Source of the DNA: an uncultured Clostridia bacterium
GTDB taxonomy: Bacteria; Bacillota; Clostridia; TANB77; CAG-508
Assembly (NCBI GenBank): GCA_948502395.1
Contig: CAOPES010000006.1
Location: 49,101 to 113,100 of the forward strand
Length of the DNA stretch: 64,000 bases
Direction of reading: 5' to 3'
Below, piece by piece: positions 6,986-52,297 of the stretch (position 1 is its first letter; the number at the start of each line of letters is the position of its first letter). The position numbers and the translations under genes are program-made. The notes below the pieces were generated by a model. It ran no database searches, was not told where the DNA came from, and saw nothing but the letters and a program-made list of their open reading frames with translations.

Positions 6986-7009
6986 TTTTTGGGACAGGTC
7001 AAAAAAATT
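6986..7009. repeat. GGGACAG-core intergenic repeat copy
   Basis: tttttgggacaggtcaaaaaaatt matches copies at 39010 and 52243. Confidence 0.5.
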
Positions 7010-7010
7010 A

Positions 7011-7040
7011 TTGACAAAGTGAATAAAAAAGTAGTATAAT
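7011..7040 (+). promoter_or_regulatory. Sigma-A-type promoter of the toxI-like RNA / toxN
   Basis: TTGACA at 7011..7016, an 18-nt spacer, and TATAAT at 7035..7040. Confidence 0.6.
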
Positions 7041-7046
7041 AAATAT

Positions 7047-7190
7047 ATTAAGAACAGCAATCATCTGATTACTAATAGGGAGTTCTTACTAAAAAAGGAC
7101 GATTTAAAATTAGGTAAAGTTCAAGCCTTATAAATGAACTGATTTAAAATTAGGTAATGCTTAGCCTTATAAGTAAGCAGTTTTAAAATA
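7047..7190 (+). ncRNA. Type III antitoxin-like repeat RNA (ToxI/antiQ-like)
   Basis: Tandem 40-nt units at 7101..7140 and 7141..7180 share gatttaaaattaggtaa and gccttataa. Their internal stems differ but stay complementary (agttca/tgaact versus tgctta/taagca). A degenerate unit precedes them and a partial unit follows. Confidence 0.7.
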
Positions 7191-7192
7191 AA

Positions 7193-7222
7193 GGGGCACA
7201 TTTGAAAAGATGTGCTCTTTTT
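7193..7222 (+). terminator. Terminator/attenuator between the repeat RNA and toxN
   Basis: Hairpin gcacat-ttgaaaag-atgtgc followed by a T-run, as in known type III TA loci. Confidence 0.65.
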
Positions 7223-7247
7223 GTATTCTTTTAAGAAAGAGGTAAAA

Positions 7248-7763
7248 ATGGAAGAATTATTATTTTACGTTGTTGATAGAAAATATATACAATATTTAAG
7301 TGAGTTCGAGAAACATATAAGTTACAATAAAGATGATATAGGGCATAGTAGACCATATTTAGGAATCGTGCTGAAAATAGATAATTATGAATATTTTGTA
7401 CCACTATATTCATATAAAGAGCATTACAAAAAATACAAAAATAATCCTAGTTTTTTCTTTGTAAAAGATAGAAAAGATAGACCACTGGCAATTATCAAAT
7501 TTTCAGCAATGATACCTGTACCTAAAACAACAAATGTAACAGAACTGTTAAGATATGGAGAGCAAGATAAAAAATATAAAGATTTAATATCAGCAGAATA
7601 TAGATACATCAATTCAAACAAAAGCGAAATTTATAAAAGAGCAAATAAAATGTATGTAGCAGTTACACAACATAAAAATAATTTTTTAAAAACTATTGCT
7701 TGTGATTTTAAACTATTAGAAGAAAAAAGTTTAAAGTACAAAGAAAATTATAGTAAAAATTGA
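7248..7763 (+). CDS. Type III toxin-antitoxin toxin, ToxN/AbiQ-family endoribonuclease
   Basis: The N-terminus FYVVDRKYIQYLSEFE, then PYLGIVLKIDNYEYFVPL, MIPVP and CDFKLLEEK parallel the AbiQ/ToxN pattern. RBS agaggt precedes ATG 7248. Confidence 0.8.
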   Translation: MEELLFYVVDRKYIQYLSEFEKHISYNKDDIGHSRPYLGIVLKIDNYEYFVPLYSYKEHYKKYKNNPSFFFVKDRKDRPLAIIKFSAMIPVPKTTNVTELLRYGEQDKKYKDLISAEYRYINSNKSEIYKRANKMYVAVTQHKNNFLKTIACDFKLLEEKSLKYKENYSKN

Positions 7764-7874
7764 ACAGTTTGTTGCAGAATATACGACAACTAAACAAAAT
7801 ATTATTTTTAAATGGACAAAAACTTAAATATGTATTACAATATTACTTGGATAAAAATAAAAGGAGAAAGCAAA

Positions 7875-8597
7875 ATGTTAAATCAATTCTCAAGAACAGA
7901 GCTGTTAATAGGAAAAGAAGGAATAGAGAAACTAAAAAAAGCAAAAGTAGCAATATTTGGAATAGGTGGAGTAGGTTCATTTGTAGCAGAAGGACTAGCA
8001 AGGGCAGGAGTAGAAAAATTCGTATTAGTAGACAATGACCAAATAAGCATAACAAACTTAAACAGGCAAATAATAGCTACAATAAAAACAATAGGAAAAA
8101 ATAAGGTTGATGTAATGAAAGAAAGGATACTAGAAATCAATCCAAATGCACAAGTAGAGATATATCGAGAATTCTATATGCCAAATTCAGAAACCCAAAT
8201 AATAACACAAGACCTAACATATGTAGCAGACTGTGTAGACACAGTTACTGCAAAAATAGAAATTATTATGCAATGTAAAAAATTAGGAATTCCAGTAATA
8301 TCATCAATGGGAACAGGAAATAAGCTAGACCCATTAAAATTTGAAATTACAGATATTTATAAGACAAGTGTATGCCCACTAGCAAAAGTTATGAGAAAAG
8401 AATTGAAAAAAAGAAATATAGAAAGCTTGAAGGTGTTATATTCAAAAGAAGAACCAATAAAAGCAACCAATAATACAGAATGTTTATCAGAAACAAAGAA
8501 AGCACAAGTACCAGGAAGTATATCATTTGTACCATCTGTTGCAGGATTAATAATTGCAGGAGAAATTGTAAAAGATATTATAAAAAATAATGAATAG
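7875..8597 (+). CDS. tcdA: ThiF-family tRNA threonylcarbamoyladenosine dehydratase
   Basis: VAIFGIGGVGSFVAEGLARAGV Rossmann motif and TcdA-like length. RBS aaaggag precedes ATG 7875. Confidence 0.75.
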   Translation: MLNQFSRTELLIGKEGIEKLKKAKVAIFGIGGVGSFVAEGLARAGVEKFVLVDNDQISITNLNRQIIATIKTIGKNKVDVMKERILEINPNAQVEIYREFYMPNSETQIITQDLTYVADCVDTVTAKIEIIMQCKKLGIPVISSMGTGNKLDPLKFEITDIYKTSVCPLAKVMRKELKKRNIESLKVLYSKEEPIKATNNTECLSETKKAQVPGSISFVPSVAGLIIAGEIVKDIIKNNE

Positions 8598-50397: not shown

Positions 50398-50546
50398 AAA
50401 TATAGTGCGTACAAATTTGTATATCAAACTTGGCGCACAAACAATTGAATGGGCTTTGAAGAAAAATACAATTTTAAGTATATATAATCAAATTAAGCCA
50501 CTATTATTCTCCTAAATATTAAAAGATTTTTTAATATTTAGGATTT

Positions 50547-51240
50547 TTATATAGGTTTTCTACTTGTTATAGAAACATCAACAGTAGAGCCATTAGAAGA
50601 GCAATGTATAATTATATCATTTCCAGTATTATTAACAAATTTGAAATCATAACTACCATAGGCAACAGCTGCGTCTTTTCCTTTTTGGATATATGGTACA
50701 TAGTTACTGTGTGCATGTCTTTCTGTAACTGATAAGCTAGGTACAGCTAATACGGCATTATAAAGAGTGCTACTTATTTGACAATTTCCGCCACCAAGGC
50801 CTTTTTTCTTGTTTCCATCTTTGTCAAAAATATCTGCTTTTTGATATCCTTTTGCAGTTGTGGCTTGTCCGTACAGTGTTACAAAAAGAGAATGTTTCGC
50901 CGTTTTTTACAGTTGTATTGTTCAATGTGTTACAAGTAATATTTATGTTATTTTGCCTAGCAGACTCCTTATTATAGACTTTTGTAGAAAAGGTAGCAAT
51001 AGTTTCTTCTTTATATTGCGGTTGCGTTGCAGGGACTTCAATATTAGTTATATTTTTGTTATCTTCATTTTTATTATTTTCTGTTTTATTTTCTTCAGTT
51101 GTAGAGGTTTTGTTTGCTTCATATTCACTTTCTTTGTTTTCATTTTTAGTAGAGTTGTTTGTAAAGTATAGGTATGCTCCAATTCCGCCTGCTAAAATAA
51201 TTATAATAAGTATTATCCAAATCCATTTATTTTTTTTCAT
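50547..51240 (-). CDS. VanW-family protein. Needs a +1 shift at the minus-strand CGG (plus coordinates 50871..50869).
   Basis: The listed ORF 50824..51240 ends just after GETFSFCNTV. Skipping the C gives -G-QATTAKGYQKADIFDKDGNKKKGLGGGNCQISSTLYNAVL...HSNYVPYIQKGKDAAVAYGSYDFKFVNNTG (VanW core). Stop TAA is at 50549..50547. Confidence 0.85.
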
Positions 51241-51402
51241 TATTTAATCACCAAAATTAGTATGCCCAAAATCTTAGAAAATATTTAAATTTTGAAATTA
51301 TTTCAAAAACTAAAATTTCAATAAAAATTTGACCAGATATAAAAAATATGTTATAATGTAAACATAAAGTGCCGAAAGGCGATAGAAAGGTAAATAGATA
51401 AT

Positions 51403-51636
51403 ATGAAAAAGAAACTAGTGAGTTTATGGAGAAAAAAACGGAACAGTGGAACTTTTACGTTAATTGTATTTTCCATAACGATACTATTTCCAGCTCTTCT
51501 TTTTGGATTTATTATTGCGATGTTGCCAGTTAGTACATATCCATATGTTTTATTAGTGTTTATGACATATATTGCGATTGTACTAGTCGGATATCAATAC
51601 TTAGATAGAGTAGTTTATTATCTAGAAAAGAAGTGA
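51403..51636 (+). CDS. Small two-TM hypothetical protein containing an unshifted in-frame CGG (51439..51441)
   Basis: 77-aa ORF with a weak RBS gaaagg. A +1 shift at CGG would give only a 19-aa product, so the gene status is uncertain. Confidence 0.4.
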   Translation: MKKKLVSLWRKKRNSGTFTLIVFSITILFPALLFGFIIAMLPVSTYPYVLLVFMTYIAIVLVGYQYLDRVVYYLEKK

Positions 51637-51743
51637 GAGATTTACCAGAAAAATTAGTGTATTTATTACACTAATTTTTTCTATTGACATTTTTCGCAAA
51701 AAAAAGTATAATAAATATGCAAATAAAAAAGGAGAGAAGTTTT

Positions 51744-51905
51744 ATGCTTGCAAAATATTGGAAAAAAATTGGAATGTTAATATTAATAATAGCTTGTATA
51801 TTTAATATAATGGGCAAACTAGTAAATAAACTATCATTAAATAAAGAAATGATATATTCAGCACAATATATGTATGAACAAGAAGAAAAAAATGACAGAA
51901 AATAA
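51744..51905 (+). CDS. Small membrane hypothetical protein
   Basis: ATG 51744 follows aaaaaggagag. One TM segment. Confidence 0.45.
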   Translation: MLAKYWKKIGMLILIIACIFNIMGKLVNKLSLNKEMIYSAQYMYEQEEKNDRK

Positions 51906-51986
51906 AACAAAACACTTGAAAAAATAAAAGAACTATGATATTATAGAAAATAGTCAGTTATAAAATTGAGAAAGAGGTGAGCTTTA

Positions 51987-52187
51987 ATGAAAAAAGAAAT
52001 ACAACCAAAATACAACCAAACAACAATTACATGTGCATGTGGAAACGTGTTAGAAGTTGGTTCAACAAAAACAGATTTAAAAGTAGACGTATGTTCAAAA
52101 TGCCATCCATACTGGACAGGAAACCTAAGACAAGAAACAGCTGGTGGTAGAGCAGACAAATTTAAGAAAAAATATGGTCTTGCATAA
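51987..52187 (+). CDS. rpmE: 50S ribosomal protein L31 (zinc-binding type A)
   Basis: MKKEIQPKYNQTTITCACGN...CSKCHPYWTG. Confidence 0.95.
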   Translation: MKKEIQPKYNQTTITCACGNVLEVGSTKTDLKVDVCSKCHPYWTGNLRQETAGGRADKFKKKYGLA

Positions 52188-52242
52188 GACAGATAAAACG
52201 AGCAAAGGTTCAAAACTTTTGCTTATTTTTTTGTGGATTTTT

Positions 52243-52297
52243 TGGGACAGGCCCAAAACGTCCGTGAATGAAACTTTTTTGGCCTGTCCCAAAAAGT
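52243..52297. repeat. GGGACAGGCC-core inverted-repeat element
   Basis: ttgggacaggcccaaaacgtccgtgaatgaaacttttttggcctgtcccaaaaagtcc. Confidence 0.75.

Follow-up and report, generated by a model that had tools for sequence, protein, structure and literature searches.

REP-like hairpin repeats of uncultured gut Clostridia and their probable association with a TIRYT-type Y1 transposase

We analyzed a family of short palindromic repeats in 64,000 nucleotides from an uncultured Clostridia bacterium (contig CAOPES010000006.1 of assembly GCA_948502395.1, positions 49,101 to 113,100). This stretch, hereafter the window, has a G+C content of 29% and comes from an uncultured spore-forming organism; positions are those of the window unless another locus is named. 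It holds eight intergenic clusters, comprising 12 full hairpin units, two half-unit "caps" and one decayed arm, with all units organized around GGGGAC(A/G)G. An earlier note, made from the letters alone, had described GC-cored palindromes of two flavours (flavour 1 and flavour 2) and a longer hairpin relative, and every sequence and coordinate that it named was present at its place. The repeats form a family that is spread in many copies over several species, with stems that covary around a fixed loop motif, with copy number and presence that vary at orthologous sites, and with inverted units on either side of a Y1 transposase gene in related genomes. They are probably lineage-specific repeats resembling repetitive extragenic palindromes (REPs) and their assemblies, the REPINs and bacterial interspersed mosaic elements (BIMEs), and would be the repeats of a REP-associated tyrosine transposase of the TIRYT, or TnpA-Y1 subclass 2.1, type.

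Hairpin repeat clusters in the window

The eight clusters are as follows, with doublets and one mixed array given without a strand.

6986 to 7005, plus strand: single flavour-1 unit, tttttgGGACAGGTcaaaaa, 41 nt past the stop codon of the open reading frame (ORF) at 6346-6945
20678 to 20799, no strand: REPIN-like inverted doublet between spoIIIAD and spoIIIAE; arms 20678-20718 and 20759-20799 (41 nt, 95% complementary); units 20689-20715 (plus) and 20759-20791 (minus), with stem GGGTGTTTTT/AAAAACACCC and loop GGGGACAG(T/A)CCTT
23930 to 24001, no strand: inverted flavour-2 doublet immediately past the spoIIIAH stop codon; units 23936-23964 (GGGAC on the plus strand) and 23969-23997 (GGGAC on the minus strand), spacer 4 nt
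39009 to 39070, no strand: flavour-1 inverted doublet with a decayed right arm, immediately past the stop codon of a GerW-family gene; units 39010-39031 (plus) and 39047-39066 (minus, three mismatches)
39164 to 39217, minus strand: capped array in the 5' untranslated region (UTR) of an MMPL transporter gene (39238); half-unit cap AAGGAGTGTCCCCGTTGGCAA at 39164-39184 and a full flavour-2 unit at 39189-39217 in the same orientation
44979 to 45065, no strand: capped array between a histidine kinase stop codon and an ABC ATPase start (45088); cap 44979-44999, which overlaps the TAA stop; inverted variant unit 45004-45032 (GGGACGGAGATAAA); full unit 45037-45065; period 33 nt
49028 to 49060, plus strand: degenerate single unit, atctgccaaGAGGTACAGACCTTTttggcagat, immediately past the stop codon of the ORF at 47426-49021; GGTACAG replaces GGGACRG
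52237 to 52298, no strand: flavour-1 inverted doublet; units 52240-52258 (plus) and 52276-52295 (minus)

REPIN-like inverted doublets account for four of the eight clusters (20678-20799, 23930-24001, 39009-39070 and 52237-52298), the rest being singletons or capped arrays; a REPIN, in the sense that Bertels and Rainey reportedly gave the term in 2011, is two inverted REPs with a short spacer that form one long hairpin. The density is about one cluster per 8 kb. Three details of the earlier note needed revision. The site at 39010, taken for a single copy, is the doublet with the decayed right arm. A flavour-2 copy does lie at 39167-39217, and what was read there as an inverted pair is the half-unit cap plus one full unit in the same orientation. 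The GGGAC(A/G)G core ascribed to all copies is found in most, the exceptions being 49025-49066 with GGTACAG and the caps, which carry GGGGACAC.

The clusters were far more numerous than expected by chance. For GGGACRG, 2.36 sites are expected in the window and 11 are present, a number that none of 100 dinucleotide shuffles reached; all 11 fall within elements named in the earlier note. The flavour-2 21-mer has four matches at up to three mismatches (0.00 expected) and the flavour-1 20-mer five (0.06 expected). Scanning for the core, with one mismatch allowed, inside a perfect stem of at least 6 bp returned 13 sites, compared to a mean of 2.7 and a maximum of 6 in 30 Markov controls; 12 of these are the elements already described, and the thirteenth, at 13771, is probably due to chance. 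The same families and inverted pairs were recovered by a repeat finder. Together, the shuffling and Markov controls reject the idea, raised as a possible refutation, that the copies are unrelated low-complexity matches.

Folding was computed as single-stranded DNA and expressed as z scores. The doublet at 20678-20799 folded with −42.8 kcal/mol (z = −12.3), in agreement with the near-perfect hairpin of about 120 nt that had been noticed within the spoIIIA operon. Scores of −10.3, −5.4 and −4.1 were obtained for the doublets at 23930-24001, 52237-52298 and 39009-39070, respectively, −4.7 for the array at 44979-45065 and −5.9 for the unit at 49028-49060, while the unit at 6986-7005 alone gave no significant fold. 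The arms of the window doublets are 91-95% complementary, and most window units are intact.

Six of the eight clusters start within about 40 nt after a stop codon. With the ABC ATPase start placed at 45088, all copies are intergenic, as had been proposed, and the placement of some copies immediately 5' of start codons is borne out by the capped arrays before the MMPL and ABC ATPase genes; the real ribosome-binding site (RBS) of the MMPL gene lies at 39224-39230, after the array. A general role as terminators did not hold up. The T-run of an intrinsic terminator was absent at every window copy, and the units occur in both orientations; termination as their primary nature is therefore not supported. 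The only terminator-like site near an element, a hairpin at 52200-52224, lies upstream of the 52237-52298 doublet, which is itself 5' of a gene at 52353. An Rfam scan of the whole window gave no match at gathering score. Sigma-70-like motifs directly adjoin two elements on the downstream side, TTGACA-17-TATAAT (7011-7040) after the element at 6986 and TTGCAA-17-TACAAT (24010-24045) after that at 23930, and these two elements thus lie between the end of a gene and the next promoter.

Unit architecture and spread among related genomes

For comparison, related stretches were fetched and numbered with the prefix L (L037 is UMGS1968). A core-anchored alignment showed that both flavours and the long hairpin share one design and differ by class in their stems. 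A unit spans about 29 nt and folds into a hairpin; its stem can have nearly any sequence, and (G)GGGAC(A/G)G occupies the 5' side of its loop. The invariant GG(G)AC serves as a gap-free anchor of the alignment, and the length of the loop varies by 1-2 nt between classes, for which reason a single fixed consensus structure or covariance model was abandoned. Loops measure 9-20 nt, and stems are AT-rich and short (6-13 bp) with no GTAG foot. Within the window the stems are TTGCCA(A)/(T)TGGCAA, GGGTGTTTTT/AAAAACACCC and TTTTTTGG/CCAAAAAA; related genomes add TGTCCA/TGGACA, TGAGACA/TGTCTCA, GATGATTTT/AAAATCATC, GAACACTT/AAGTGTTC, TGGAAAT/ATTTCCA, GTGCCA/TGGCAC and others. The two flavours and the long hairpin are thus hairpin classes with a common loop motif, the GGGGWSAS of the TIRYT/TIRtron repeats discussed below.

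At 64% of the first 323 core sites, compared to about 6% of random positions, the core lies inside a perfect stem of 6 bp or more. An initial pooled arm-swap test was uninformative, being affected by chance 6-mers and by classes confounded by register. With one unit taken per transposase locus, a perfect stem of at least 6 bp was kept in 19 of 20 units, versus 29 of 380 (7.6%) after arms were swapped between loci, which shows that the stems covary while the loop motif is fixed.

Units stand alone, pair up in inverted doublets whose fold is a long hairpin, or line up in arrays that are head-to-tail or mixed. Flavour-2 units of 29 nt are separated by four A/T bases, giving a period of 33 nt, and their cores point in either direction; flavour 1 forms doublets and, in other genomes, arrays with a period of about 36 nt. 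Many arrays terminate in a half-unit cap, GGGGACACTCCTT: 22 distinct arrays, including both pre-gene arrays of the window, end in the half unit TTGCCAnnnGGGGACACTCCTT and continue into unrelated sequence. On the opposite strand the cap reads AAGGAGTGTCCCC, which resembles a Shine-Dalgarno sequence. A same-strand gene follows in 12 of the 22 capped arrays, and in nine of those its real RBS abuts the far end of the array. The two flanks of the array at 39164-39217 also resemble each other (TAAGAAGGAG and TAAGAAAGGAG, 39160-39230). The AAGGAG-bearing cap may be a fixed target that was kept at one end, may have arisen by duplication of a ribosome-binding site, or may be a part of the element. Relative to genes, genuine units have a weak orientation bias (12 versus 6 for caps, 9 versus 4 for flavour-2 singletons); the bare 7-mer is strongly biased, probably because coding strands are rich in purines.

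The family is found in uncultured AT-rich, spore-forming gut Clostridia, and the repeats are not unique to the window. In a collection of species-representative genomes, the flavour-2 20-mer was present in at least 99 stretches and at least 45 times in a single metagenome-assembled genome (MAG), CATGLK01; among the matches listed, 18 assemblies are labelled uncultured Clostridium or Clostridia and are gut MAGs. By our own calculation about four chance matches are expected in the 596 Gb searched, which accounts for the single match, among those listed, to a Bdellovibrionales MAG. Copies lie overwhelmingly between genes: of the first core sites, 256 were intergenic and 75 'coding', against a coding fraction of 0.85, and most of the 'coding' cases were over-extended ORF starts.

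Viral contigs had no match to the flavour-2 20-mer. The flavour-1 20-mer was found once in each of three IMG/VR contigs of the same sequence (L104 1056-1075, L105 and L106), where it lies unpartnered 46 nt inside an ORF of 1212 nt; chance could explain it, as could a true copy carried by a phage or by a misbinned contig.

Orthologous sites differ in their content of units. Site A1 holds one, two or three units in different relatives, and close relatives differ from each other in unit number, by increments of about 33 nt. Site A3 has a singlet in one relative and an inverted doublet in another, with arms that are identical even in a rare variant, and a third species has a different stem class at the same place. 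Site A4 carries 0.5, 2 or 4 units of another class, and one further site is filled in UMGS1968 and empty in the window. The window organism itself recurs in the MAG GCA_948724935.1 from NCBI and in a series of metagenomes, and its strains are identical at 39000-39240.

Several larger differences touch the elements. Two relatives with flanks about 95% identical (L020 2430-3010 and L030 5770-5830) differ in that one has a plain inverted doublet and the other has inverted unit sets about 430 nt apart; the intervening non-coding DNA has inverted ends of its own, of about 25 nt, and may be a cargo-carrying or nested element. Window segments ending at 39012 and 50399, 11 kb apart, adjoin in UMGS1968 (L037 3783-4690), which places elements at a rearrangement breakpoint; the junction there holds a flavour-2 tandem and a small gene. 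Logan short-read contigs of the window organism begin or end inside elements, as is to be expected of multi-copy DNA, at 20768-20771, 23961-23963 and about 39194 (L002-L004 and L193), with L002-L004 starting within the right arm of the 20678-20799 hairpin and ending at the center of that at 23930-24001. Many homologs of the transposase described below stand alone on contigs of about 1 kb. Both patterns indicate that the repeats fragment assemblies.

The unit-flanked Y1 transposase gene

Y1 transposase query sequences used in tblastn gave weak matches in three fetched loci. In these (L072, L033 and L070), ORFs of 243-267 amino acids are bracketed by inverted units identical to flavour 2. The ORFs matched Pfam Y1_Tnp with 36-39 bits (threshold 23), and their best NCBIfam match was 'REP-associated tyrosine transposase' (REP_Tyr_transpos; E about 1e-18). 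Relatives numbered 164 in a metagenome scan and 611 in a protein search. The RAYT- or IS200-like transposase to which the earlier note had pointed, RAYT being short for REP-associated tyrosine transposase, is thus found in related genomes.

For 43 distinct genes with both sides available, the 260 nt on either side were surveyed for GGGAC (coding strand) upstream and GTCCC downstream. This arrangement was present in 29 of the 43 genes, the reverse arrangement in none of them, and none of 273 control segments from the same loci showed it. Each transposase gene has its own stem class together with the common loop motif. Several genes that lack GGGAC are also flanked by inverted hairpins, in one example with the same stem and the loop GGTTCCGGGTTT. 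In a sister clade of transposases, about 48% identical (L108 2747-2814 and 3894-3961, L122 and L123), the stem TTGCCA/TGGCAA likewise encloses the loop GGTTCCGGGTTT; there the stem is constant and the loop altered, the converse of the main pattern.

The gene is single-copy and occupies a conserved slot, gdpP-rplI-dnaB-[gene]-tilS-ftsH, in at least five species. Across 40 homologs, N58-H59-x-H61 and Y119-I120-H121-x-N123-P124 are invariant, and F98 stands at the position of the W motif. The AlphaFold2 (AF2) model (mean predicted confidence, pLDDT, 85.5) shows a separate four-helix C-terminal domain at residues 182-245. In Foldseek the best match of the model was 4ER8, the Escherichia coli TnpA_REP bound to a REP hairpin (E 5e-7), followed by the TnpA proteins of ISDra2, IS608 and IS200, and a profile search of the PDB also reached 4ER8 (E 0.0013). 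The predicted fold is that of a Y1/HUH enzyme with TnpA_REP as its nearest neighbor. Among 30 homologs, the C-terminal domain gave weak and scattered matches to helix-turn-helix (HTH) families in Pfam (HTH_19 in 6, HTH_11 in 4, HTH_28 in 3 and HTH_23 in 2) and none to Bac_DnaA_C.

Downstream of the gene, tilS contains one to three in-frame flavour-2 units in at least five species, and their place between the SGGxDS and AHVNH motifs is constant (L072 3840-3902, L033 760-790, L005 2337-2368, L194 2922-3992 and L204 3775-4776). An example of the insert is ...NYQEGQSPVAGFCQEGPTPMADFCQKGPTPVA..., and the 33-nt period corresponds to 11 codons. The tilS insert doubles as the repeat that flanks the transposase gene on its downstream side.

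Identity of the family and alternative readings

The closest published counterpart is the TIRtron. Di Nocera, De Gregorio & Rocco 2013 (BMC Genomics 14:522, PMC3733652) described RAYT-like genes with terminal inverted repeats that are not GTAG REPs, and named these units TIRtrons and their enzymes TIRYTs; GGGGWSAS is common to many of these repeats, and certain of them form moderately abundant families, in dimers or clusters. Quentin et al. 2018 (PMC6006769) placed most TIRYTs in TnpA-Y1 subclass 2.1, equivalent to Bertels' Group 1, with a median length of 238 amino acids, N-H-x-H and Y[IV]H.NP motifs, F or W in the W motif, a C-terminal HTH (Bac_DnaA_C, HTH_23 or HTH_28) and flanking GGGG[AT][CG]A[CG]; no REP-like structures were reported for this subclass. 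Bertels et al. 2017 (PMC5581495) found RAYT Group 1 also in Clostridia, with flanking 16-mers only modestly repeated. The text of PMC3733652 mentions neither Firmicutes nor Clostridia, and no description of such a system in Clostridia was found in the searchable literature; a search for the element sequence returned irrelevant hits only.

The system described here matches the TIRtrons in its low-copy Y1 gene flanked by inverted repeats that share GGGGWSAS, in the dispersal of the flanking repeat as singles, dimers and clusters, and in a protein of about 240-265 amino acids with Y..NP, F for W in the W motif and a C-terminal helical domain that may be an HTH. GGGGACAG, found in flavour 1, the hairpin class, L141 and L167, and the cap sequence GGGGACAC fit GGGGWSAS exactly, whereas the commonest core here, GGGGACGG, differs from it at position 7. 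Unlike the published TIRtrons, the present repeats occur in uncultured gut Clostridia, reach high copy numbers, form 33-nt arrays with a defined cap, and display the motif in a loop with covarying stems. Motif, protein length, helical C-terminal domain and Y..NP signature point to subclass 2.1; the Y motif of subclass 2.6 would likewise accommodate YIH[NE]NP.

Classical REPs, BIMEs and REPINs of E. coli and Pseudomonas share with this family the short intergenic palindromes (there in hundreds per genome), inverted doublets and mixed-orientation clusters, the placement mostly at gene 3' ends and inside operons with known in-frame insertions, and the inverted flanking of a single-copy, vertically inherited Y1 transposase. 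The family departs from them in carrying its motif in a large loop of 9-20 nt and not beside a long GC-rich stem with a small loop, in its short AT-rich stems and in the extra C-terminal domain of the enzyme. A classical GTAG-tagged REP, which for subclasses 2.2, 2.4, 2.5, 2.7 and 2.8 is defined by GT[AG]G 0-2 nt 5' of the stem, a GC-rich basal stem and a 2-5-nt loop (PMC6006769), was rejected on account of the AT-rich stems, the 9-20-nt loops and the lack of a GTAG foot. The CGTC-tagged REP (PMC3733652) was rejected as well: CGTC in the complement of GGGGACGG is inside the loop and not terminal, units with GGGACAG have no CGTC, and a transposase is associated here and none there.

With IS200/IS605 ends and their derivatives (palindrome-associated transposable elements, PATEs) the family has in common a Y1/HUH enzyme and would share hairpin recognition on single-stranded DNA and the lack of a target duplication, and a fixed target possibly kept at one end would parallel the AAGGAG at the cap. 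It differs in that the gene is single-copy, in a conserved slot and without tnpB, has the Y..NP of class 2 and not the Y...Q of IS200, and is flanked by inverted and not direct hairpins. Rickettsia palindromic elements (RPEs) are also palindromic repeats that insert in frame in AT-rich genomes; they are 100-150 nt long, have no known transposase and bear no sequence relation, and the likeness is limited to the in-frame tilS insert.

In our judgment the family is probably a REP-like system of the TIRYT type, and the earlier description of the elements as REP/BIME-type or miniature mobile is supported: they are multi-copy, variable at orthologous sites and placed around a Y1 transposase gene in related genomes. 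We regard the family as a new lineage of known miniature mobile DNA and not as a new kind of element. Under the TIRYT-type reading, a single-copy HUH/Y1 enzyme would act on single-stranded DNA, such as that of the replication fork; it would recognize the loop motif together with the hairpin and would cut and rejoin the DNA such that units are copied or excised. Inverted duplication would give REPIN-like doublets, and slippage or repeated insertion the 33-nt arrays. Copies would persist where harm is small, namely after stop codons, within operons, in 5' UTRs and, as 11-codon inserts, in frame in tilS; effects on mRNA ends or translation would be possible and secondary. Catalysis, the single-stranded substrate, the cleavage site and present-day activity are here assumed by analogy with IS200/IS605 and TnpA_REP. 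The window organism's own genome presumably carries the enzyme, and its copies may be active or relics.

A number of observations count against the TIRYT-type reading. No Y1 gene or remnant was detected in the window by tblastn, the dnaB-tilS slot does not lie within it, and three guessed homologs (P0016, P0041 and P0052) come from other organisms and not the window's own. In a related MAG (L005) the units of the slot are kept and the gene is absent. At 65-67 bits, the REP_Tyr_transpos score does not reach the curated cut-off of 80. Exact GGGAC/GTCCC flanks are missing from 14 of the 43 genes, several of which have other inverted hairpins, and neither flavour 1 nor the T-run class was seen in exact form beside a transposase gene, the closest case being L148. 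The GTAG/GTGG tetranucleotide at the 5' foot of classical REPs is absent. Among the orthologous sites, no target-site duplication or clean filled-empty junction was obtained; for capped arrays, the one close ortholog that is 'empty' is rearranged. Mobilization by TIRYT-type enzymes has itself been proposed, not demonstrated, in the TIRYT literature cited.

Some of these points would be explained if the transposase had been lost from the window organism and the copies were inert relics that change by slippage, recombination and decay. We consider such a fossil family unlikely. The missing gene in the window and in L005, the decayed copies at 39047-39066 and 49028-49060, and the identity of the window organism's strains at 39000-39240 would all be in keeping with it, whereas most window units are intact, their doublet arms retain 91-95% complementarity, and the gene is kept in the same slot in at least five related species.

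Still less probable, to the point of being hard to credit, is that the repeats are primarily selected cis signals of the host (terminators or attenuators, mRNA-stabilizing 3' hairpins, translation modulators beside the RBS or operator arrays of a DNA-binding protein) with an incidental link to the transposase. The positions of six of the eight window clusters close behind stop codons, the 12 of 22 capped arrays before a same-strand gene (with the RBS abutting in nine) and a 33-nt period near three helical turns could be read as signs of host function. Against this, stems are followed by no T-tract and match nothing in Rfam, both orientations relative to genes occur among caps and flavour-2 singletons alike, neighboring genes are functionally unrelated, units lie in frame inside tilS, copy number varies between close relatives, and the polarity-specific flanking of the transposase (29/43 versus 0/273) is not incidental. 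Some copies may have been co-opted secondarily.

Miniature inverted-repeat transposable elements (MITEs) of a DDE-type insertion sequence, a CRISPR-like array or chance low-complexity matches can be set aside: short elements with inverted ends and a CRISPR-like unit of 29 nt might suggest the first two, but no target-site duplication was seen, the only unit-flanked gene found encodes a Y1 transposase, the 4-nt spacers are not CRISPR spacers, and the shuffling controls exclude chance. CsrA-type GGA loops and type III toxin-antitoxin arrays were rejected along with CRISPR on the basis of the two orientations, the unrelated downstream genes and the 4-nt spacers. The strict sigma-54 promoter is TGGCAC-N5-TTGC, and a sigma-54 reading of TGGCAA-N4-TTGC was dropped as its spacing is one base too short.

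Beyond the assignment itself, a broader proposal can be made tentatively, at somewhat less than even chances: that subclass-2.1 enzymes, the largest RAYT group and reported without REP-like structures, do have cognate hairpin repeats; that their logic inverts the classical one, with GGGGWSAS in the loop and a drifting stem; that one enzyme could drive several stem classes; that the repeats reach REP-like densities in gut Clostridia; and that they insert beside AAGGAG. If this were true, one enzyme could serve flavours 1 and 2 and the long hairpin in the same genome, and arrays with an 11-codon period can sit in frame in essential genes. Under the TIRYT-type reading itself, conspicuous unannotated sequences of human and animal gut Clostridia would be tied to a specific enzyme gene, and abundant REP/RAYT-type systems, known almost only from Proteobacteria and a few other phyla, would extend to Firmicutes. 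About 20 natural stem variants with one loop motif offer a ready compensatory-mutation series for TIRYT/subclass-2.1 enzymes, and three features deserve the notice of specialists: a motif shown in the loop while the stems covary freely, the 11-codon arrays that can sit in frame, and the Shine-Dalgarno-like cap. Gene calls suffer as well, since the repeats cause starts to be over-extended and place inserts in frame.

Apart from the hairpin family, the window contains a 230-nt direct repeat (28664-28893 and 32039-32268, 77% identical) that takes in, for each of two genes (ORFs 28821-30641 and 32190-33530), the 5' end and the region upstream of it. No Rfam family matches this repeat, which may represent paralogous N-termini or a shared leader.

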